64,000 nucleotides of DNA from an uncultured bacterium (GTDB lineage: Bacteria; Edwardsbacteria; AC1; EtOH8): contig CAWAAX010000006.1 in assembly GCA_963780225.1 (NCBI GenBank), positions 18,136-82,135 of the forward strand, in the 5' to 3' direction. The notes under the pieces are model-generated. The model saw only the letters and a program-made list of their open reading frames with translations. It was not told the origin of the DNA and ran no database searches. This document shows positions 4,965-37,374 of this stretch, one piece after another. The position numbers were made by a program, and so were the translations under genes. Each line of letters opens with the position of its first letter. Positions within the stretch are counted from its first letter, which is position 1.

Positions 4965-5285
4965 GTGATGAGACCTTCGATCCTCCGGACCGCAGTGCAG
5001 AAGGCCAGAGTGATTCTGGACGGCAAAAAGCCCTGGCCGGTCAATGTCCTGCGCAAGGACCAGCACAAGGAACTGGACCTGGCTCCCCAGATACTGGACA
5101 TCTCGGACGAGGCCGGTTCTCTTAAGATCAAAATGCGGCTGGTGGAGGGCGGGGTCAAGCTGAACGAGGCGCTGGCGGTGATACTGGAACTGCCGGAGGG
5201 CAGGATCAAGCAGCTGCTGATAGAGCGGGTAGGGATGTACCACATTACGCCACGGGAGATGCTGAGCCCCATGCGGTTTGTTTAA
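4965..5285 (+). CDS. Continuation of the DUF2344 domain, same frame as the upstream gene and separated from it only by TAA
   Basis: It starts at GTG directly after the TAA at 4962-4964 in frame 0. The sequence 'ILDGKKPWPVNVLRKD...LKIKMRLVEGGVKLNEALAVIL' resembles the C-terminal half of TIGR03936-family proteins. Confidence 0.5.
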   Translation: MMRPSILRTAVQKARVILDGKKPWPVNVLRKDQHKELDLAPQILDISDEAGSLKIKMRLVEGGVKLNEALAVILELPEGRIKQLLIERVGMYHITPREMLSPMRFV

Positions 5286-5297
5286 AGCTTTTTATTT

Positions 5298-5395
5298 AAC
5301 CACAGAAAGCACAAAGGGCACAAAAAATTTCTTTCTATATTTCTCAAGTGGTTTTTAAATCGTGATCCTATGTGATTTATGTGCATTTTGTGGTT
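5298..5395. repeat. Gene-less inverted-repeat hairpin of the CACRAAR family
   Basis: The left arm aaccacagaaagcacaaagggcacaaaa (5298-5327) is complementary to the right arm tgtgatttatgtgcattttgtggtt (5371-5395). The right arm is nearly identical to the right arm at 8836-8857. Confidence 0.6.
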
Positions 5396-5429
5396 AATTA
5401 AGGTAATCGGTAAAGGTGTTGGTTGAAAA

Positions 5430-6158
5430 ATGCGGAACATCAAACTTCTTCTTGAATACGACGGCACGGCCTTTGCCGGATGGCAGGTTCAGCCGGAGCA
5501 GCGCACGGTGCAGGGGGTGCTGGAGTCGGCCCTGTCCCAGATGACCGGGGAGAAGGTGTCGCTGACAGGCTCGGGCCGCACCGACGCCGGGGTCCACGCT
5601 TCGGGACAGGTGGCTAATTTCAGGACAGAAAAGGACATTCCCTTAAAAGCCTTCAACGAGGGCCTGAATGCATTGCTCCCAAAGGATGTGGCAGTGCTGA
5701 AGGCCGAAGAGGCCGACCCTGAATTTCATTCCCGCTTCGGCGCCAAGAGCAGGCTGTACCGCTACCAGATCATAACCCGGCGTTCGCCTCTGCTGGAGCG
5801 CTATGCCTGGAGGATCCTCTATCCGCTGAACCGGGAGGTCCTGCCGGAGCTGTGCAACGTCATTCTGGGAAAACACGATTTCACCGCCTTCGCCTCGGCC
5901 CAGGCCGAGGTGGACAATTTCAACGTGAACGTGACCCGGGCCGGCTGGAAGGATTACGGGGGCGTGCTCAGCTTTGAGATCCTGGCCGACCGCTTTCTGC
6001 ACAACATGGTGCGGATCATCGTAGGGACCATGATGGACACGGCCCGGGGGCGCCTTAAGCCGGAGGATATGAAGAAAATACTGGAGTCCAGGGACCGGAC
6101 CCTGGCCGGTAAGACCGCCCCGGCCTGCGGTCTGTGTTTGGTGAAGGTGGAGTATTGA
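5430..6158 (+). CDS. truA: tRNA pseudouridine(38-40) synthase
   Basis: 'LEYDGTAFAGWQVQ...GSGRTDAGVHASGQVANF' is the TruA signature. Confidence 0.9.
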   Translation: MRNIKLLLEYDGTAFAGWQVQPEQRTVQGVLESALSQMTGEKVSLTGSGRTDAGVHASGQVANFRTEKDIPLKAFNEGLNALLPKDVAVLKAEEADPEFHSRFGAKSRLYRYQIITRRSPLLERYAWRILYPLNREVLPELCNVILGKHDFTAFASAQAEVDNFNVNVTRAGWKDYGGVLSFEILADRFLHNMVRIIVGTMMDTARGRLKPEDMKKILESRDRTLAGKTAPACGLCLVKVEY

Positions 6159-8368: not shown

Positions 8369-8415
8369 AAATTGTCGGGCCTGGGTGGTAAATTATGAAT
8401 CAATAAATTAATTTA

Positions 8416-8857
8416 CCACAAAAAGCACAAGGAACACATAAAATGACGGATAACGAAGTATTGCGACTATGTGATATTGTTAGGCAGACGGCCTTTGTTC
8501 TTCATACCTATTTACGGAACGGCCATTTGGAAAAGGTATATGAAAACGGATTAACCCATCGTCTTCGTAAGGCAGGAATAAAGGTCGAACAGCAGCACCC
8601 TTTAAAGGTTTTTGACGAAGATGGAACCATTCTGGGGGAGTACTTCGCAGACCTGTTAATAGAAACGGAACTTATCGTCGAACTTAAGGTCTGCAAGGCA
8701 ATAGCAGATGAGCACCTGTCCCAAGTATTCGGATATTTACGCGCCACAGGGCAGCGACATGGATTATTAATTAATTTTGGATCGCAACAAATTCAATTTA
8801 AGAAATTGGTTTTGTAGGTATGGCGTTAATTTTGCGATTTATGTGCTTCTTGTGGTT
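8416..8857. repeat. Matched inverted-repeat pair enclosing a GxxExxY gene
   Basis: The left arm ccacaaaaagcacaaggaacacataaa (8416-8442) ends 1 bp before the ATG. The right arm gatttatgtgcttcttgtggtt (8836-8857) lies 19 bp after the stop. Arm cores ccacaaRaagcaca...taaa are complementary. Confidence 0.6.
8443..8817 (+). CDS. GxxExxY family protein (PD-(D/E)XK-like small protein), paralog 1
   Basis: 'LEKVYENGL...GEYFADLLIETELIVELK...' matches the GxxExxY pattern. It is paralogous to the ORFs at 18126 and 27504. Confidence 0.8.
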   Translation: MTDNEVLRLCDIVRQTAFVLHTYLRNGHLEKVYENGLTHRLRKAGIKVEQQHPLKVFDEDGTILGEYFADLLIETELIVELKVCKAIADEHLSQVFGYLRATGQRHGLLINFGSQQIQFKKLVL

Positions 8858-10162: not shown

Positions 10163-11224
10163 TTGAAGAATTGCATCCAGTGTCTTTTGCCGGAGAGCGC
10201 ACCGGGCATCAGCTTTGATGATTCCGGGATCTGCAACTACTGCCGGACATACAAGAAGACCGAGCTTAACGGCGAGGAGGCCCTGTTAAGGATCCTTGAC
10301 CGCCAGCGCCGCCGGGGCGGAAAGTACCAGTGCCTGGTGCCATTGAGCGGCGGCCGTGACAGCACCTTTGCCCTGCTGAAGATGGTCCGAGATTACGGTC
10401 TGACTGCTTTGGCGGTGAATTATCAGAATCCTTTTACTTCACCCGAAGCTGCTGCGAATATTCGGCAGGCCACCGAAAAACTGGGGGTGGAACTGGTGAG
10501 CTTTGGTCTAAAGCCGGGTTTGCACCAAATGACACTCAAGAAGAACCTGGAGGCCTGGCTCAAAAGGCCGTCGGCGGCGCTGGTTCCGATAATCTGCAGC
10601 GCCTGCCACAACATGTGGCTGCCGATCATGCAGATCGCCAAGAAACACGATATCCATTGCATAGTCACCGGGCGCAACCCCTACGAGGAGGTCTCGTTCA
10701 AACGCCGCCTGCTGGGGGTCAGCCCCGACGAGGACATCAGGAATGTCTATCTAAAGAACCTCGGAGGAATAGTCAAGGAGGCGGCCAAGAACCTGTCCTA
10801 TTTCTCGCCCCAAACCCTGCCGGTGATGATCAAGGGGCATTTCTTCGGCAGTCCCTATGCTTTGGGAACCAGGATCTACGGCCGCGGCATCGAAATGGCT
10901 GACCTGTTCTTTTACCTGCCCTGGAACGAATCTGAAGTCATGTCCCGGATCCAAAACGAGTTGGGCTGGCAAAGCCCCAAAGAGCAGGGCAACACCTGGC
11001 GCTTCGACTGCAGGGTTTCGCACCTGCGGGATCTGATGTACCAGAAGACCATCGGGATGACCGAGCGCCAGGAGCTTTACGCCCGGCTGATCCGCGAGGG
11101 GTTGATATCCAAACAGGAAATTGGAAACCGGCTGCCGGTGGAGAATGCCATCCATTATGACAAGATTGAGGCCCTGTTGGACGAAGTGGGCATAAGGGAC
11201 AGGTCTTACCTAAGACAGGAGTGA
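10163..11224 (+). CDS. N-acetyl sugar amidotransferase (PP-loop ATPase, WbuX/TIGR03573-like), polysaccharide biosynthesis
   Basis: It has the N-terminal Cys cluster 'CIQCLLPESAPGISFDDSGICNYC' and the PP-loop 'SGGRDS'. The start codon is TTG. Confidence 0.6.
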   Translation: MKNCIQCLLPESAPGISFDDSGICNYCRTYKKTELNGEEALLRILDRQRRRGGKYQCLVPLSGGRDSTFALLKMVRDYGLTALAVNYQNPFTSPEAAANIRQATEKLGVELVSFGLKPGLHQMTLKKNLEAWLKRPSAALVPIICSACHNMWLPIMQIAKKHDIHCIVTGRNPYEEVSFKRRLLGVSPDEDIRNVYLKNLGGIVKEAAKNLSYFSPQTLPVMIKGHFFGSPYALGTRIYGRGIEMADLFFYLPWNESEVMSRIQNELGWQSPKEQGNTWRFDCRVSHLRDLMYQKTIGMTERQELYARLIREGLISKQEIGNRLPVENAIHYDKIEALLDEVGIRDRSYLRQE

Positions 11225-11253
11225 ACCAAATCTCTTATTTACCAAGGTTGTCC

Positions 11254-11314
11254 TTATCCACAGATTAACGCAGATTGTCACCAATTATATTCATAATCAA
11301 TCTGTGTAAATCTG
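11254..11314. promoter_or_regulatory. TTATCCACAGATTAACGCAGATTG (exact DnaA-box consensus TTATCCACA) with an inverted partner CAATCTGTGTAAATCTG
   Basis: The direct copy is at 11254-11277 and the inverted partner at 11298-11314. Both lie in the amidotransferase/MIF intergenic region. Confidence 0.45.
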
Positions 11315-11417: not shown

Positions 11418-11813
11418 ATGCCCATCATCGAAATAAAAGCCCTGCCCCAGAAACCGGAGGTCAACATCTCCGATACGCTGAAGACCATCTGCGTGCGACT
11501 GGCCGACAAGATGGGGCTGCAGCCCAAGCAGGTCTGGGCCACTTGGACCACCATCGAGCCCGGCTGCTATCTGGAAGGCGAGGCCCAGGCTAGGGTCCAG
11601 CCCTACGGAACCCATCCGCCGCTGGTGAACATGCTGGCCTTTGAAGGCAAGAGCGAAAGCGAAATAGAAACGGCCATGCTGACCATCGCCGAGGAGCTGG
11701 CCAAGCGCCTGCAGATAGATCCCGAGAACATTTTCATCAAATACGACGAGACCAGGTCCGGCCGGGTCTTCACCGGGGGGACGACCATCATCAAGACCAA
11801 ACACGGTAAATGA
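11418..11813 (+). CDS. MIF/tautomerase-superfamily protein
   Basis: Starting at ATG 11418, preceded by a GGAGG RBS, gives the N-terminus 'MPIIEIK' (Pro1). 'LQIDPENIFIKYDETRSGRVFTGGTT' resembles the MIF C-terminal segment. Confidence 0.45.
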   Translation: MPIIEIKALPQKPEVNISDTLKTICVRLADKMGLQPKQVWATWTTIEPGCYLEGEAQARVQPYGTHPPLVNMLAFEGKSESEIETAMLTIAEELAKRLQIDPENIFIKYDETRSGRVFTGGTTIIKTKHGK

Positions 11814-11829
11814 GATGCCGGGGCTTTTC

Positions 11830-11916
11830 GCCACTAAGGCACAAAGACACAAAGGGTATTAAAAATAGTACCAAGCGCGATAAATAATTTTCTTGGAGCC
11901 TTGGTGTCTTTGTGGC
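11830..11916. repeat. Gene-less inverted-repeat hairpin of the CACRAAR family
   Basis: gccactaaggcacaaagacacaaagg (11830-11855) is complementary to ccttggtgtctttgtggc (11899-11916). It uses the same octamer units (aaagacac, taaggcac) as the arms flanking the GxxExxY gene at 27504. Confidence 0.6.
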
Positions 11917-11932
11917 TAGTAAAGGTCTTAAT

Positions 11933-13634: not shown

Positions 13635-14276
13635 ATGTCGCCTAAAAACAATATTAACCCAACGCCTGTAACAGTTGAGAATAAAATAGAATTGCCAAAA
13701 CAAAATAATGGTATGGCATTTTGGGCTTTGGGAATTTCAGTGATATCACTTATAATAAGTAGTCTTTCCACTTATTGGATTGCGTACCCAAATTACAGTT
13801 TGAAAATTATCGATGCCAATTTATGTTTTAATGTGAAGGCCCTGTATGATACAACTTATTTAGACTCAAATTATGTGGAGTGTAAATTTTATAATGATGG
13901 CAATAGAGCTGTAACAGTAAAAGATTTTCGCTTTTACCTATCCGATAAAAATGATTCCATGTTGTTCGTTTTTCAAGATGACGTTGTTTGCCCAAAACAA
14001 ATAGAACCTGGTGATTATGCCGAAAGTATAGTAAAACTGTCTTTCATAAGGGTATATAACCCACCACCACAGCAAATCACAAAGATGAAATATCGTTTAC
14101 CTTATAAAAATTACAGCAGTTGGAAAATGTTATCCGATTCATTTCGCATGGGCCAAGCAAGTTTACCCTTAAAACGGGAAATAGAATTTAATATTAAAAT
14201 ACATTATGCCGGGAATAAAGAGCTTAAGTATAAACGATCAATTTCATGTATTTGGCCAATTCCTATAGAAGATTAA
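13635..14276 (+). CDS. Hypothetical membrane-anchored protein in an AT-rich island
   Basis: It has one N-terminal TM helix, no recognisable domain, and local base composition far more AT-rich than its neighbours. Confidence 0.4.
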   Translation: MSPKNNINPTPVTVENKIELPKQNNGMAFWALGISVISLIISSLSTYWIAYPNYSLKIIDANLCFNVKALYDTTYLDSNYVECKFYNDGNRAVTVKDFRFYLSDKNDSMLFVFQDDVVCPKQIEPGDYAESIVKLSFIRVYNPPPQQITKMKYRLPYKNYSSWKMLSDSFRMGQASLPLKREIEFNIKIHYAGNKELKYKRSISCIWPIPIED

Positions 14277-17290: not shown

Positions 17291-18049
17291 ATGATCTACC
17301 AACAACTGCTGAAAACCGCCAAGCAAAAGGGCTCGAATTTCCTGGTCCTTTTGGACCCCGACAAGTGCAAAAAACAGGACGCGGCCAAGATCGGCCAGGC
17401 CTTGAACGACGCCGGGGCCGATGGCATCCTGTTCGGCACCAGCCTGCTGATGTCCAACCAGATCGACGACACCATCAAGGCCTTAAAGCAGAACTTCAAA
17501 CAGCCGGTGATCATATTCCCCGGCAGCGCCTACCAGGTCTCGCCGCACGCCGATGCCATCCTGTACCTGTCGCTGGTCTCGGGCCGCAATGCGGAACTAT
17601 TGATCGGTGAGCAGGTCAAGGCCGCGCCCATGCTGAAAGCCTCGGGCCTGGAGGTGATCCCCACCGGCTACATGTTGATCGAGTCCGGCAAGCTGACCTC
17701 GGCCAACTACATGAGTCACACCATGCCCATCCCCCGGGACAAGTCCGACATCGCCATGGCCCACGCCCTGGCCGCCCGGATGCTGGGGATGAAGCTGATC
17801 TACATGGACGCCGGCAGCGGCGCCCAGCAGAGCGTCCCAGAGGAGATGATCGCCGGGGTGGCCAAATATGCCGAGCTTCCCGTTGTGGTGGGAGGCGGCA
17901 TCAAAACGCCCGAGGACGCCGGGGCCAAGGCCCGGGCCGGGGCCGCCGCGGTGGTGGTGGGGAACATTTTGGAGAAGAAGGGCAACATCAAGACGGCGGC
18001 GGATTTCGCCAGGGCTATTCACTTCAGGGCGAAAACAAACCGGGGCTAA
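17291..18049 (+). CDS. Geranylgeranylglyceryl/heptaprenylglyceryl phosphate synthase family protein (PcrB/GGGPS)
   Basis: 'LVLLDPDK...ADGILFGTS...IIFPGS...LIYMDAGSGA...VVVGGGIKT' follows the GGGPS/PcrB TIM-barrel pattern. A GGAGG RBS precedes the ATG. Confidence 0.7.
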   Translation: MIYQQLLKTAKQKGSNFLVLLDPDKCKKQDAAKIGQALNDAGADGILFGTSLLMSNQIDDTIKALKQNFKQPVIIFPGSAYQVSPHADAILYLSLVSGRNAELLIGEQVKAAPMLKASGLEVIPTGYMLIESGKLTSANYMSHTMPIPRDKSDIAMAHALAARMLGMKLIYMDAGSGAQQSVPEEMIAGVAKYAELPVVVGGGIKTPEDAGAKARAGAAAVVVGNILEKKGNIKTAADFARAIHFRAKTNRG

Positions 18050-18545
18050 CCACGGAAACACGGAATTTATGAAAACACGGAAACATATAAAATGATTTGT
18101 TTGATTACGTTAGGTGTGTTTATATATGAGTATAGTAAGATCTGACCATTTGGAATTAGAAGAATTAACAGGGAATATTATTTCTTGCGGAATAGAAGTC
18201 CATAAAAAACTAGGTCCCGGATTTCTGGAATCGCTATATGAATCTGCTTTGCTGGTAGAACTTCAAAAAAGAGGCTTGCATACCACAAGTCAAAAGGAGA
18301 TCAGGGTATTTTATGACGGATTTGAAATTGGCGTACACCGGCTGGACATTGTCGTAGAGAATAAAGTTATTGTTGAACTTAAAGCGGTCGCTGAACTTGA
18401 CCAATGCCATAAAGCACAGTTGCTGTCATATCTCAAGGCTAGTCATTTAAAAATTGGGTTACTGTTAAATTTTTCTAAAAATATTCTCCAGGTGAAAAGG
18501 ATGGCATATTGATTCCCAGAATTCCTCATTCAGTGTTTCCGTGGT
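18048..18545. repeat. Matched inverted-repeat pair enclosing a GxxExxY gene
   Basis: The left arm aaccacggaaacacggaatttatgaaaacacggaaacatataaa (18048-18091) is complementary to the right arm cagtgtttccgtggt (18531-18545). The core is accacggaaacac. Confidence 0.6.
18126..18512 (+). CDS. GxxExxY family protein, paralog 2
   Basis: 'HKKLGPGFLESLYESAL...IVVENKVIVELKAV' is paralogous to 8443 and 27504. The ORF-track start at 18114 is GTG; the ATG at 18126 is the more likely start. Confidence 0.8.
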   Translation: MSIVRSDHLELEELTGNIISCGIEVHKKLGPGFLESLYESALLVELQKRGLHTTSQKEIRVFYDGFEIGVHRLDIVVENKVIVELKAVAELDQCHKAQLLSYLKASHLKIGLLLNFSKNILQVKRMAY

Positions 18546-27468: not shown

Positions 27469-27475
27469 TTCCTTT

Positions 27476-27922
27476 GCCACAAAGACACTAAGGCACGAAA
27501 ATCATGAATTATCAACCGCTATCAACAGTAGAAGAAGAGCGGGCAAAGAAAATCGTAGATGCCGCATATGCAGTGCATAAAAAACTGGGTCCGGGGTTGC
27601 TGGAAAAAGTATACGAGGTATGTTTTTGGCATGAATTGTCTAAACGGGAATTAAGGTACCAAAGGCAAGTTGATGTACCGATTGTTTATGACGGTATAAC
27701 GTTTGATGAAGGACTATGTTTAGATGTCCTGGTGGAAAACAGCATCATCTGTGAATTGAAAGCCGTAGATGAGATGAATCCAGTCTGGGAAGCACAAATA
27801 CTGAGCCATTTAAAACTAACTGGCAAACGCCTTGGATTTCTCATCAATTTTAATCTGTCAGTTATCAAAAACGGTATTAAACGATTTATTGTATAAACTT
27901 GGTGACTTAGTGTCTTTGTGGC
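27476..27922. repeat. Matched inverted-repeat pair enclosing a GxxExxY gene
   Basis: The left arm gccacaaagacactaaggcacgaaaatc (27476-27503) abuts the ATG. The right arm cttggtgacttagtgtctttgtggc (27898-27922) lies 2 bp after the stop. The 17-bp core gccacaaagacactaag is perfectly complementary. Confidence 0.7.
27504..27896 (+). CDS. GxxExxY family protein, paralog 3
   Basis: 'HKKLGPGLLEKVYEVCF...LDVLVENSIICELKAV' matches the GxxExxY pattern. Confidence 0.8.
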   Translation: MNYQPLSTVEEERAKKIVDAAYAVHKKLGPGLLEKVYEVCFWHELSKRELRYQRQVDVPIVYDGITFDEGLCLDVLVENSIICELKAVDEMNPVWEAQILSHLKLTGKRLGFLINFNLSVIKNGIKRFIV

Positions 27923-34570: not shown

Positions 34571-34870
34571 CCGCCCCCTAATCCCCCTCCGTTGCGGAGG
34601 GGGAGATAACCATCCCTCTCCACCCTTCGGCTCTGCTCAGGGCAGGCAATGGAGAGGGGTAGGCGATGCACTGAGAAAGACTGCCTTGATACACTTATGA
34701 AGTGGGAGAGGTCCCACCCGCCGGAAGGCGGGTTTTTTGTTTGACCGCCCCCTCATTCCCCACTTTCGTTTGTCAAAGTGTTCTGCCTTTCTCAGTGCAG
34801 GCTCTCCTGGCAGGAGGGGGAGGCTTGTTTTCCCTCCCCTACCAGGGGAGGGGCAGGGGAGAGGTCCAAA
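34567..34870. repeat. Cluster of GC-rich mosaic palindromic repeat modules (GACCGCCCCCT..CCCC, CTCCGTTGCGGAGGGGGAG, ATCCCTCTCCAC..GGAGAGGG, ACTTTCG..CTCAGTGCAGGC)
   Basis: The same modules recur in both orientations at 36594-36838 and 37224-37374. Confidence 0.7.
34717..34741 (+). terminator. Rho-independent terminator after yajQ
   Basis: cccgcc-ggaa-ggcggg followed by ttttttgtttg. Confidence 0.6.
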
Positions 34871-34929
34871 ATATTCCTTGATTTTGTCCCCCTTTGGTTG
34901 TATTCTTATACTAAATGTAACCATTATTT

Positions 34930-36570
34930 ATGGAGCTTTTTATGGACAACAGGCTTTACTATGGCGACAATCTTGACATTTTACAGCGGCACATAGCCGA
35001 TGAAAGCGTGGACCTTGTTTATCTTGACCCGCCGTTCAACAGCAATGCCAATTACAACGTGCTGTTTAAGGAGAAGGACGGCAGCCAGGCGGCTTCGCAG
35101 ATAAGGGCTTTTGAAGACACCTGGTCCTGGGACCAGGAAGATGAGAGCGTTTTTGCCGAAATGGTTACCAAGGGCGGCAAGGTGGCCGATTGTTTGCAGG
35201 CCTTTAGAACGTTCATGGGGCCATGCGACATGCTGGCTTATTTGGTGATGATGGCTCCGAGGTTAGTGGAGTTGAAAAGGGTGATGAAAAACACGGCCAG
35301 CATTTATCTGCATTGCGACCCCAGCGCTTCGCACTATTTGAAGATGCTGATGGATGCCGTGTTCGGGCCTGCCTATTTTAGGACAGAAATTATCTGGAAA
35401 CGAAGCAGCGCCCATAGCGACGCAAAACAAGGCAGAGCACAACATGGCAGAATACATGATGTGATACTGTTTTATACAAAAACGGATGATTGGTTTTGGA
35501 ATCATATGTTCACTTCATATGATGAGACATACACGGATACTTTCTATAAATATGTTGAACCAGGGACTGGTAGACGATACAGGCTTGACAATTTGACTGG
35601 GCCAGGCGGAGCTGCAAAGGGTAATCCGTCCTATGAAGTTATGGGCATCACTCGGTTTTGGCGGTATAGCAAAGAGAAAATGGATGAATTGATAAAGCAG
35701 GGCCGAATAATTCAAACGAAACCAGGTAATGTACCAGCCTATAAACGATATCTTGACGAAATGCCAGGTGTTACCCTACAAGATGTTTGGACTGATATTG
35801 GGCCTATAAGTTCACAAGCAACGGAAAGACTTGGTTACCCTACACAAAAACCCGAGGTGCTTCTTGAAAGAATAATTAATAGTTCTTGCCCGGAAGGTGG
35901 CCTTGTCCTTGATCCCTTCTGCGGGTGCGGCACCACCATTGCGGCGGCGCAGAAGTTAAACCGCAGTTGGATAGGCATAGACATAACCCACATGGCCATA
36001 ACCCTGATGAAGAAACGCCTGCTGGACACCTTTGGCGGAGAAGCAAAGTTCAAGGTTTTGGGTGAGCCGACCAGCCTGCCGGATGCGGCGGCTTTGGCCG
36101 AGAGCGACCAGTACCAGTTCCAGTGGTGGGCCTTGGGCCTGGTGGACGCCCGCCCGGTGGAGCAGAAGAAAGGCGCCGACAAGGGCATTGACGGCAAGAT
36201 AGTGTTTCAGGGCGATGCGCCGGGGGTGTTCGAGAACGTGGTGATCTCGGTAAAGGCCGGGCATTTGAACGCCAACCATATTAGGGACCTGCGGGGCGTG
36301 GTGGACCGGGAGAAGTCGGCCATTGGGGCGCTGATAGCAATGGAGGAGTTTACCAAGCCCATGCAGACCGAGGCGGCCACGGCGGGGTTTTATGAATCTG
36401 CCACCTGGGGCAAGAAATATCCCAAGATACAACTGCTGACCATTGAGGAACTGCTAAACGGCAGGAAGATAGAGATGCCGCCGATCAAGCAGGTGGAGGC
36501 GACCTTCAAGAAGGCCGAGAAGGTGAAGGGGGGCAAGGGCAAGCAGATGAAGATGGAAGAAAAAGTTTAG
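34930..36570 (+). CDS. Beta-class N6-adenine/N4-cytosine DNA methyltransferase fused to a C-terminal Mrr-like PD-(D/E)XK (restriction-endonuclease-like) domain
   Basis: Motif IV 'LDPPF' near the N-terminus and motif I 'FCGCGTT' about 300 aa later give the beta-class order. The C-terminal ~130 aa 'KGADKGIDGKIVF...VISVKAGH...IRDLRGVVDREKSAIGALIAMEEFTKPMQTEAATAGFY...KIQLLTIEELLNG' follow the Mrr_cat pattern (D-G-I-D-G ... x-x-K ... FT..A ... I.L...EEL). Confidence 0.7.
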   Translation: MELFMDNRLYYGDNLDILQRHIADESVDLVYLDPPFNSNANYNVLFKEKDGSQAASQIRAFEDTWSWDQEDESVFAEMVTKGGKVADCLQAFRTFMGPCDMLAYLVMMAPRLVELKRVMKNTASIYLHCDPSASHYLKMLMDAVFGPAYFRTEIIWKRSSAHSDAKQGRAQHGRIHDVILFYTKTDDWFWNHMFTSYDETYTDTFYKYVEPGTGRRYRLDNLTGPGGAAKGNPSYEVMGITRFWRYSKEKMDELIKQGRIIQTKPGNVPAYKRYLDEMPGVTLQDVWTDIGPISSQATERLGYPTQKPEVLLERIINSSCPEGGLVLDPFCGCGTTIAAAQKLNRSWIGIDITHMAITLMKKRLLDTFGGEAKFKVLGEPTSLPDAAALAESDQYQFQWWALGLVDARPVEQKKGADKGIDGKIVFQGDAPGVFENVVISVKAGHLNANHIRDLRGVVDREKSAIGALIAMEEFTKPMQTEAATAGFYESATWGKKYPKIQLLTIEELLNGRKIEMPPIKQVEATFKKAEKVKGGKGKQMKMEEKV

Positions 36571-36593
36571 GGGTTTGGTTAGAATTCCGCCCC

Positions 36594-36838
36594 AAGCTTC
36601 GGACCGCCCCCCTGCCCCCTCCGTTGCGGAGGGGGAGGGGAGTGTCCCTCTCCACATTGGAGAGGGACAAAGGGAGAGGTCAAAAGCTTCGGACCGCCCC
36701 CTCGTTCCCCCTCCGTAGCGGAGGGGGAATAGGTTGTGTGAATAGTTATGTGTTGATATGTTTGATGATGTAAATAAAACTGATGACGAAATCCCTCTCC
36801 ACAATGGAGAGGGGGAGGGGAGAGGTCGAACCAGGCCA
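36594..36838. repeat. GC-rich mosaic palindromic repeat modules between the MTase gene and the DUF559 gene
   Basis: aagcttcggaccgcccccctgccccctccgttgcggagggggag... occurs twice, and atccctctccacaatggagaggg extends into the 5' end of the DUF559 ORF. Confidence 0.7.
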
Positions 36839-37219
36839 GCCCACCCCAAGGGCAGCACCGGGATTATCAGGCTGCAAAAAGTGAAAAGCAGCAAATTAGA
36901 GTTGGCCAAATATTTCAGACAGCATATGACACTTGGCGAAAGGTGCTTCTGGAATATGACCCGCAAGAACCAGGTCAACGGTTACCGATTCAGACGCCAG
37001 CAGGTGATCCACGGCTTTGTTGCCGATTTCTACTGCAACCAGATAAACCTGGTGGTCGAGATAGACGGCGGCATCCACGAACAGCAGAAGGACTACGACA
37101 AGCTTCGCACAAAAATAATTAACCAGTACGGCATCCGGGTCATACGTTTTACCAACGAAGAAATGATGGATAAAAGCGATTGGGTGTTGGAGAAGTTGAA
37201 GGAAGCTGCGAGAAGTTGA
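36758..37219 (+). CDS. DUF559 (Vsr-like endonuclease-fold) protein; the 5' boundary is uncertain because the ORF's first ~25 codons are repeat sequence
   Basis: 'KLELAKYFRQHMTLGERCFWNMTR...GYRFRRQQVIHGFVADFYCNQINLVVEIDGGIHEQQKDYDKLRTKIINQYGIRVIRFTNEEM' is the DUF559 pattern. Confidence 0.7.
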   Translation: MFDDVNKTDDEIPLHNGEGEGRGRTRPAHPKGSTGIIRLQKVKSSKLELAKYFRQHMTLGERCFWNMTRKNQVNGYRFRRQQVIHGFVADFYCNQINLVVEIDGGIHEQQKDYDKLRTKIINQYGIRVIRFTNEEMMDKSDWVLEKLKEAARS

Positions 37220-37223
37220 TTGC

Positions 37224-37374
37224 CTAAAGCTTCGGACCGCCCCCTCGTTCCCCACTTTCGCTTGTCGTAGTGTTCTGCCTTGCTCAGTGCAGGCACTCCG
37301 TTGCGGAGGGGGAGGACAGACATCCCTCTCCACATTGGAGAGGGATAAAGGGAGAGGTCGAACCCCGCAGGACG
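37224..37374. repeat. GC-rich mosaic palindromic repeat modules downstream of the DUF559 gene
   Basis: ctaaagcttcggaccgccccctcgttccccactttcgcttgtcgtagtgttctgccttgctcagtgcaggcactccgttgcggagggggag...catccctctccacattggagagggataaagggagaggtcgaacc. Confidence 0.7.

Follow-up and report, generated by a model that had tools for sequence, protein, structure and literature searches.

The question raised by this locus is what kind of sequence fills the spacer between a tautomerase-like gene and recX in a stretch of 64,000 nt from an uncultured bacterium (contig CAWAAX010000006.1), the whole of which is called the window below. At positions 11830-11916 of the window lies an 87-nt imperfect inverted repeat of the form GCCAC+(NAAGRCAC)n ... 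(GTGYCTTN)n+GTGGC. An earlier note, made from the letters of the window, had taken it as a gene-less hairpin built of the same octamer units as the arms around a GxxExxY gene at 27504, and had offered three origins for it: a deletion remnant, a derivative like a miniature inverted-repeat transposable element (MITE), or the empty form of an insertion site. Our analysis shows that the element before recX is a real, gene-less copy of the end-repeats of a GxxExxY cassette. With a probability of roughly 0.6, we take it as a MITE-like or REP-like (repetitive extragenic palindrome) non-autonomous, gene-less member of a family related to this nuclease cassette; among the three origins offered before, the MITE-like derivative fits best.

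That the inverted repeat is more than chance is supported by its RNA fold, given below, and by two further results. The motif AAGRCACNAAGRCAC, with at most one mismatch, occurs 4 times in the 64-kb window against 0.05 expected, and only at 11836/11896 and 27482/27902. In addition, an arm profile built from 234 arms, taken from other genomes only, matches the window at four places, 11825-11859(+), 11920-11886(-), 27472-27502(+) and 27926-27893(-), with E values from 9e-9 to 5e-7, the next-best match in the window having an E value of 0.6. The sequence and the profile together confirm that the element is gene-less and carries the units of the arms around the 27504 gene. Moreover, the terminal 13 nt GCCACAAAGACAC of the arm at 11899-11916 are identical to both ends of the 27476-27922 cassette, and the element, as expected of a MITE, has terminal inverted repeats in common with a larger coding element. 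An inverted-repeat search gives an arm pair at 11837-11855 / 11899-11917, of 19 nt and 89% complementary; the spaced arms described before are present, with 43 nt between them rather than the 44 bp given. No ORF (open reading frame) lies between the arms, and no remnant of a GxxExxY gene is detected in the loop, whose local alignment to six cassettes scores at shuffle level; the deletion remnant has no positive support. The loop does hold a weak sigma-70-like match (11859-11888, 9/12). Arms of this type occur in the 64 kb on a single gene-less copy and a single cassette, and other contigs carry at least 4 copies in 5-12 kb.

The link of the arms to GxxExxY loci, seen before at a single gene, turns out to be general. 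Each of the three GxxExxY genes of the window is enclosed by a CCAC(N5CAC)n inverted repeat, whose units are of a variant kind in two cases (Table 1). For the metagenomic relatives of the protein at 46-88% identity, 80 loci were collected, 72 of them with enough flank. A forward unit array is found within 150 nt upstream of 48 of these 72 genes and a reverse array within 150 nt downstream of 49, and 40 are armed on both sides in this way; the swapped arrangement is seen in 6/72, and control windows 640-800 nt away give 0/34. The units around these genes vary, with CGC for CAC or with a length of 9 nt. In six aligned cassettes, whose proteins are 72-88% identical and whose flanks are unrelated, the nucleotide homology starts at GCCAC and stops at GTGGC. 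Neither pepP nor efp stands beside the GxxExxY gene in any of the fetched metagenomic loci (0); one relative has a 92% identical copy in synteny, between pepP and efp, and an 88% copy lies in a polysaccharide operon. Since the homology is bounded by the arms and the contexts are unrelated, the cassette of ~450 bp, arms included, is the unit that moves. In the polysaccharide-operon copy (L284, 2501-2504) and its equivalents, the epimerase gene called upstream runs 4 nt into the GxxExxY ORF; its stop codon thus lies inside the cassette, and the insertion seems to have reshaped the end of the epimerase gene.

Table 1. Parts of the gene-less element before recX and of the three GxxExxY cassettes in the window
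Feature	Positions	Strand	Composition	Evidence or remark
Left arm of the element	11830..11855	+	GCCAC + units TAAGGCAC, AAAGACAC, then AAAGG	sequence; arm profile 11825-11859, E 8.9e-9
Spacer (loop) of the element	11856..11898		43 nt, AT-rich	no ORF, no detectable GxxExxY gene remnant
Right arm of the element	11899..11916	+	CCTTGGTGTCTTTGTGGC = CC TTGGTGTC TTTGTGGC; reverse complement GCCAC AAAGACAC CAAGG	arm profile 11920-11886(-), E 4.9e-7
Cassette left arm	27476..27501	+	GCCAC AAAGACAC TAAGGCAC GAA	arm profile E 1.2e-7; cassette homology begins here
GxxExxY protein gene	27504..27896	+	PD-(D/E)XK fold, 130 aa	between pepP-like and efp genes
Cassette right arm	27897..27922	+	ACTTGGTGACTTAGTGTCTTTGTGGC	arm profile E 8.9e-8; cassette homology ends here
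Second GxxExxY cassette	8415..8856	+	left ACCACAAAAAGCACAAGGAACAC (8415-8437), gene 8443-8817, right GTGCTTCTTGTGGT (8843-8856)	
Third GxxExxY cassette, different unit	18049..18545	+	left ACCACGGAAACAC (18049-18061), gene 18126-18512, right GTGTTTCCGTGGT (18533-18545)	

The GxxExxY protein is modelled with confidence (predicted local distance difference test, pLDDT, 89) and has a PD-(D/E)XK core in which the D, E and K residues are conserved. Its structural neighbours are generic, namely Cas4, lambda exonuclease, the nuclease domains of restriction enzymes, Hjc and tRNA-splicing endonuclease. By sequence, no relative is found in the PDB; PADLOC gives marginal Cas4-like matches only, and PHROGs none. 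At least 7975 clusters at 90% identity match the query with an E value of 1e-10 or better, and proteins ~80% identical are labelled Deltaproteobacteria and Marinimicrobia; few uncharacterised families of small proteins in bacteria are as abundant as GxxExxY. PF13366 has been listed under 'function unknown, multiple transfers' (PMC3424549), and the literature searched, outside which most subscription journals lie, gives no function for GxxExxY/PF13366 and no activity data. An exact-sequence look-up finds neither the recX protein, with either start, nor the 27504 GxxExxY protein on record.

To see the size of the repeat family, the exact 17-mer GCCACAAAGACACYAAG was scanned in a collection with one genome per species. 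It meets at least 120 loci, where a random-sequence estimate predicts ~140 chance matches; the matches are nevertheless clearly non-random, because most of them run on into further units and many have a right-arm partner. Among the matches listed, 56 of 123 seeds have a right arm with a GTGGC-like terminus within ~400 nt, a stricter scan finds the partner in 50 cases, 11-350 nt downstream in all but one, and a GxxExxY gene lies inside only one of these loci. The record titles, again among the matches listed, include Planctomycetota, Bacteroidota, Desulfobacterota, Nitrospirota, Nitrospinota, Verrucomicrobiota, Chloroflexia, Blastocatellia, Betaproteobacteria and others. The carriers include isolates (Flavobacterium stagni, F. 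saliperosum and Arcicella aurantiaca), so the arm is not an artefact of metagenome binning. With the pattern left open at the degenerate positions, the arm is found in 64 IMG/VR contigs, some of which pack at least 4 elements into the short gaps between genes, a phage tail tube gene among them. Among them, the putative phage contigs L183, L173, L191, L196, L149 and L156 have at least 4 gene-less elements each, L183 with the tail tube gene PF18906. These elements start a few nt past a stop codon and run to the next gene; they have a stereotyped AT-rich loop in common, and within one phage contig the constant letters and the loop are kept while the degenerate arm letters differ.

On the whole, the typical family member is gene-less, 55-200 nt long and found in all kinds of intergenic spacer. 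For 100 members with called neighbours, 66 spacers are co-directional, 21 divergent and 13 convergent. The element at 11830-11916 belongs to these CACNAAG unit-array palindromes: it has the GCCAC...GTGGC termini and at least two mirrored NAAGRCAC units per arm, it is intergenic and of the family's length (87 nt with an AT-rich spacer of 43 nt, the family spanning ~55-200 nt), and its in-register letters are mostly non-complementary (0/4, the mean for elements of 70-90 nt being 0.85/4). The family crosses phyla and reaches phages; in the literature searched we found no description of it, and no mention of the arm sequences except as unrelated primers.

Unexpectedly, the arms of the family keep their triplets and not their pairing. 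The constant letters GCCAC, AAG and CAC are mirrored across the family, and the degenerate letters are complementary at 145 of 750 positions, against 239.6 ± 12 when the right arms are re-dealt among the elements. The deficit shrinks steadily with the distance between the arms: out of four positions, the mean number complementary is 0.33 at 40-60 nt, 0.67 at 60-70 nt, 0.85 at 70-90 nt, 0.97 at 90-200 nt and 1.65 at 200-900 nt, where the elements are mostly gene-bearing, with a chance level of 1.38. The mean fold is -31.6 kcal/mol for real elements, -33.6 for chimeras and -57.9 for perfect versions. In the element before recX, the degenerate letters are T, G, A, A on the left and A, A, C, G on the right (reverse complement), an in-register match of 0/4, and the unit-to-unit pairing proposed earlier needs TAAGGCAC bulged out. 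The word hairpin holds only in part: the inverted arms are there, and the RNA fold of 11815-11932 reaches -36.5 kcal/mol (z -3.2 against shuffles), but the pairing was overstated, as the arms of the family are less complementary at their degenerate positions than re-paired arms. A pairing shifted by one 8-nt unit was considered as the rule and rejected, because shifted registers do no better than chance in the family; for this reason, and on steric grounds, we also dropped a crossed pairing of swapped units, like that of a pseudoknot. The conserved feature is the AAG/CAC triplet pattern, not a stem. In our reading, selection maintains the triplet pattern and disfavours self-pairing between arms that lie close together, and the pattern AAG.CAC.AAG.CAC in mirror orientation looks like one for protein recognition. 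Close perfect palindromes are unstable, and triplets that are kept together with a pairing deficit fit protein recognition at the DNA level and palindrome instability, while they fit a selected RNA hairpin poorly.

These data bear on the proposal that the tautomerase-recX transcript contains the element as a functional RNA stem-loop, which would serve mRNA processing or stability (for example as an RNase III site) or stabilise the upstream cistron, and so tune recX. We regard it as improbable, although the fold has a z of -3.2 and in its extended form pairs 11820-11828 with 11921-11929, covering the AAAGG before recX, although family members often fill short co-directional spacers and start a few nt past a stop codon, and although the gene-bearing cassette is laid out like the Coxiella 23S intervening sequence (IVS; PMC4990558). 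What weighs more is that paired arms are less complementary than random pairs, most so when they are close, and that chimeras fold at least as well as real elements. A.C mismatches outnumber G.U pairs on the sense strand of co-directional spacers, 87 to 52 (p 0.004), the opposite of what selection for a sense stem would give, and A is more frequent in the 5' arm (p 3e-4). Besides, 21 of the 100 elements lie between divergent genes, and the element is not conserved in relatives. Rfam has 0 matches in the window at gathering thresholds, and in the element region, with E values up to 10, the best is 0.15, from plant microRNA precursor models far below their thresholds.

The freedom of the letters between the constant triplets, which vary across phyla and even within one phage contig, together with the disfavoured pairing between arms, could also be explained by an array of sites at which a conserved host protein, of nucleoid, replication or regulatory type, would read the AAG/CAC triplets, with no mobility involved. 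This is more improbable still: presence or absence varies among close relatives at the same locus, a horizontally mobile gene cassette is bounded exactly by the arms, a period of 8 bp differs from the helical repeat of DNA, and we know of no candidate host protein that would read such triplets. Some other known sites may be set beside the arms. For an integron attC site the termini are wrong (GCCAC/GTGGC, not GTTRRRY/RYYYAAC), and the cassette has half-arms on both sides of its gene, not one attC. A DnaA box and Chi give partial letter matches only, at the termini; the repeat does not fit the motifs of Hfq, CsrA or Rho sites.

The spacer before recX was then compared with its orthologs. The upstream neighbour of the element is a gene of the tautomerase superfamily (11418-11813) with a weak Tautomerase_2 match, and the element begins 16 nt past its stop codon; the downstream neighbour is recX, with three RecX domains. 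The likely start of recX is ATG 11933, as in the ENA gene call on contig L121, which matches the window exactly. From the end of the right arm it is 16 nt to this ATG and 4 nt to an AAAGG at 11921-11925; the arm overlaps recX only with GTG 11912 as start. It thus abuts the likely recX ribosome-binding site, and the overlap claimed earlier is not borne out.

Relatives were found through the tautomerase-like protein, and the source is related to candidate division TA06. The closest comparison is with contig L283, where the tautomerase protein is 92% identical and the flanking coding DNA ~94% identical to the window, while the stretch between the tautomerase stop codon and roughly codon 5 of recX is unrelated. 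The first codons of recX differ (MKIMNAKAY... in the window against ..SSKENVSPKAY... in L283; 11912-11950 against 700-745), and therefore the replaced segment includes the recX start. In two groups of relatives at 80% protein identity the tautomerase-recX spacer has no such element either. The alignments indicate that the element before recX was gained, or replaced another spacer, recently, because L283, with its flanks ~94% identical, has a completely different spacer. The sequence before recX, first codons included, would be recent imported DNA and not a conserved regulatory element. As observations beside this, the recX genes of the relatives are called at 185-193 aa, reading through a palindrome, which looks like an over-long start, and a palindrome CCCCTTCTCTTTAAAAGAGAAGGGG, in the style of those near a DUF559 gene described below, occupies the tautomerase-recX spacer of L124 and L283. 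In a TA06 bacterium (GCA_016208585.1, 85%; L122, 3397-3602) a different palindrome of GAAAAACRC-like units, CCCGCGAAAAACGCGAAAAACACGAAAAC ... TTTCGCGCTTTTTCGAGTGTTTAGCGGG, occupies the equivalent position after the tautomerase gene; recX is not beside that gene here, and a solitary right arm CTTAGTGTCTTGGTGGT lies just before an M23 peptidase gene. The gene-bearing form shows the same turnover. In the neighbouring rnfD-recA spacer, L122 has an intact GxxExxY gene, as does the window (the second cassette, gene 8443-8817), while L134/L135 have a decayed one and L124 has none.

Absence from the orthologous spacers of relatives means that the element is not a conserved terminator without relation to GxxExxY loci, the outcome that would have spoken against the earlier description. 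Indeed, that it is the intrinsic terminator of the tautomerase-like gene is very improbable. A stem-loop starting 16 nt after the tautomerase stop codon is well placed for one, but no T-run follows the right arm (TAGTAAAGG is there instead), a terminator scan is empty at 11830-11930, and the stem is AT-rich and interrupted; other family members, furthermore, sit between divergent genes and in tightly packed operons.

In the reading we favour, the family ends are inverted arrays of 8-nt units, GCCAC(NAAGRCAC)2-3 ... (GTGYCTTN)2-3GTGGC, and the same ends are the terminal inverted repeats of a ~450-bp cassette whose sole gene encodes a PD-(D/E)XK nuclease of 125-130 aa, GxxExxY (PF13366/TIGR04256). 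The gene-less form would be to this cassette as a MITE is to its transposon, or as a REP to the gene of its REP-associated tyrosine transposase (RAYT). The GxxExxY nuclease, or another enzyme, would recognise the arms and move or copy the elements, and one copy would have entered or replaced the tautomerase-recX spacer recently, as selfish or neutral DNA. Any effect on recX would be incidental; the new spacer does supply the sequence before recX and its first codons.

The main rival reverses the order of events: the gene-less palindrome would be primary, and selfish nuclease genes (GxxExxY, occasionally HNH-AP2) would home into its centre, the copy at 11830 being an unoccupied target. It accounts for the great excess of gene-less over gene-bearing forms, for the many loops of 0-15 nt, which have no room for remnants, and for the loop at 11830-11916, which holds no gene remnant. 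It is also in line with contig L023 (1382-2186), from a metagenome-assembled genome of Phycisphaerae, where CACNAAG arms of the same type enclose no GxxExxY gene but an unrelated ORF of 253 aa; it has an AP2 domain (E 1e-8) together with a weak match to HNH_3, the composition of a homing-endonuclease-like protein. The degenerate letters of the arms can be read for both sides. Once gene identity is ~75% their similarity is at chance level, as the rival expects, but at 86-87% gene identity, in a different genomic context, 6-7 of 10 are in common, which suggests that arms and gene travel together; from what is essentially one independent comparison, the two seem to be co-inherited. A filled version of the site, with a GxxExxY gene in this spacer, is found in no relative, and the spread of the palindromes across phyla and phages is left unexplained by homing. 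We hold the landing-site explanation unlikely.

Several points also weigh against the MITE-like or REP-like reading. No target-site duplication is found: the element is flanked by CTTTTC and TAGTAA, and direct repeats abutting the ends are at chance level across 117 elements, the flanks being rich in T from -4 to -1 and in A from +1 to +5. The element is therefore not like a classical DDE-type MITE. The spacers of the relatives are not alignable, and the insertion ends are not fixed to the base by mapping of the junctions. In the fetched DNA, gene-less elements far outnumber GxxExxY genes, and the multi-copy phage contigs have no GxxExxY gene on them; action in trans would be required. The AP2/HNH gene in the same arms in L023 fits equally with selfish nuclease genes that insert into pre-existing palindromes. 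The co-inheritance of arms and gene comes from essentially one independent comparison, and the element statistics assume independence, though some elements come from one contig. Finally, the mobilising enzyme is inferred.

It is helpful to set the element beside the known systems which it resembles. Like a MITE, it is short (87 nt) and non-coding, its inverted repeats are of the type found on a gene-bearing element in the same genome, and its family is made of interspersed intergenic copies whose presence or absence differs between close relatives. Unlike a MITE, it has no target-site duplication, its partner is a 130-aa PD-(D/E)XK nuclease and not a DDE or other known transposase, and its arm sequence is common to many phyla and consists of arrays of 8-nt units whose degenerate letters avoid complementarity. 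REPs and bacterial interspersed mosaic elements (BIMEs), with their RAYT genes (REPtrons), are similar in having short, imperfect intergenic palindromes and a presumed mobilising gene flanked by inverted repeats. REPs, however, are palindromes of 20-40 nt with a conserved GTAG head, RAYTs belong to the Y1 transposases (IS200/IS605-like), and REP families are species-specific; the element here has no GTAG head, the flanked gene is PF13366 and not Y1_Tnp, and the arm sequence crosses phyla and occurs in phages.

Short IVSs without a gene also exist. The IVS of the Coxiella burnetii 23S gene has 428-444 nt, a terminal stem of 28 bp and one small ORF (S23p), and is excised by RNase III (PMC4990558). 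The GxxExxY cassette is comparable, with ~447 nt, arms of ~26 nt and one small ORF of unknown function that is horizontally transferred. However, the element before recX lies between protein-coding genes, in a window with no rRNA match, and the IVS ORF encodes a four-helix bundle as against PD-(D/E)XK here. Because IVS stems are nearly perfect and the pairing here is degraded, excision of these elements at the RNA level is doubtful. Homing endonucleases, for their part, offer the likeness of a small free-standing nuclease gene in unrelated contexts with gene-less 'alleles', and once of an HNH-AP2 gene in the same arms; the difference is that the 'target' here is a dispersed repeat and not a conserved host gene, with no intron or intein.

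Beyond this locus, we put forward tentatively, and with the odds somewhat against it, that GxxExxY proteins may be the nucleases of a previously unrecognised class of minimal mobile cassettes of ~450 bp, present across phyla and phages, with many gene-less derivatives including 11830-11916, and with arms that are read as arrays of AAG.CAC triplets and evolve to avoid mutual pairing. If true, this would give a concrete and testable function to GxxExxY/PF13366, a very large and horizontally transferred family, and would provide annotation with a new class of intergenic repeat common to many phyla and phages, which annotation pipelines and RNA-motif hunters will otherwise keep meeting as unexplained 'hairpins' or terminators. 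Inverted repeats of this kind, which keep their constant triplets but whose intervening letters are under selection against pairing that strengthens as the arms come closer, would also bear on how genomes tolerate palindromes.

The window holds another small PD-(D/E)XK gene, of DUF559/PF04480 (36758-37219, E 8e-32), which within 34583-37345 is surrounded by different short repeats: the palindromes CCCTCTCCACAWTGGAGAGGG and CCCCCTCCGTWGCGGAGGGGG and the direct repeat AAGCTTCGGACCGCCCCC, three times each. From these repeats, and from the palindrome CCCCTTCTCTTTAAAAGAGAAGGGG of the same style in L124 and L283, it is suggested that small solitary nuclease genes each travel with a repeat family of their own. 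Other differences from the relatives are seen nearby. After the HlyIII gene, L124-L129 carry at 5278-5868 (window equivalent 13635-14276) a gene of 196 aa that faintly matches a Y1 transposase (PF01797), and the window has in its place an unrelated ORF of 213 aa with no Pfam match. A ThiI-like (PP-loop) gene at 10163-11224, between recA and the tautomerase-like gene, is found in this genome only, the tautomerase gene directly following recA in L283, L124, L134 and L122. In the 3' flank of the ThiI-like gene (~11250-11310) there are short repeats of CAGATT type, and similar ones, ACAGATTAA and CACGGATTAACA, lie beside elements in several loci.

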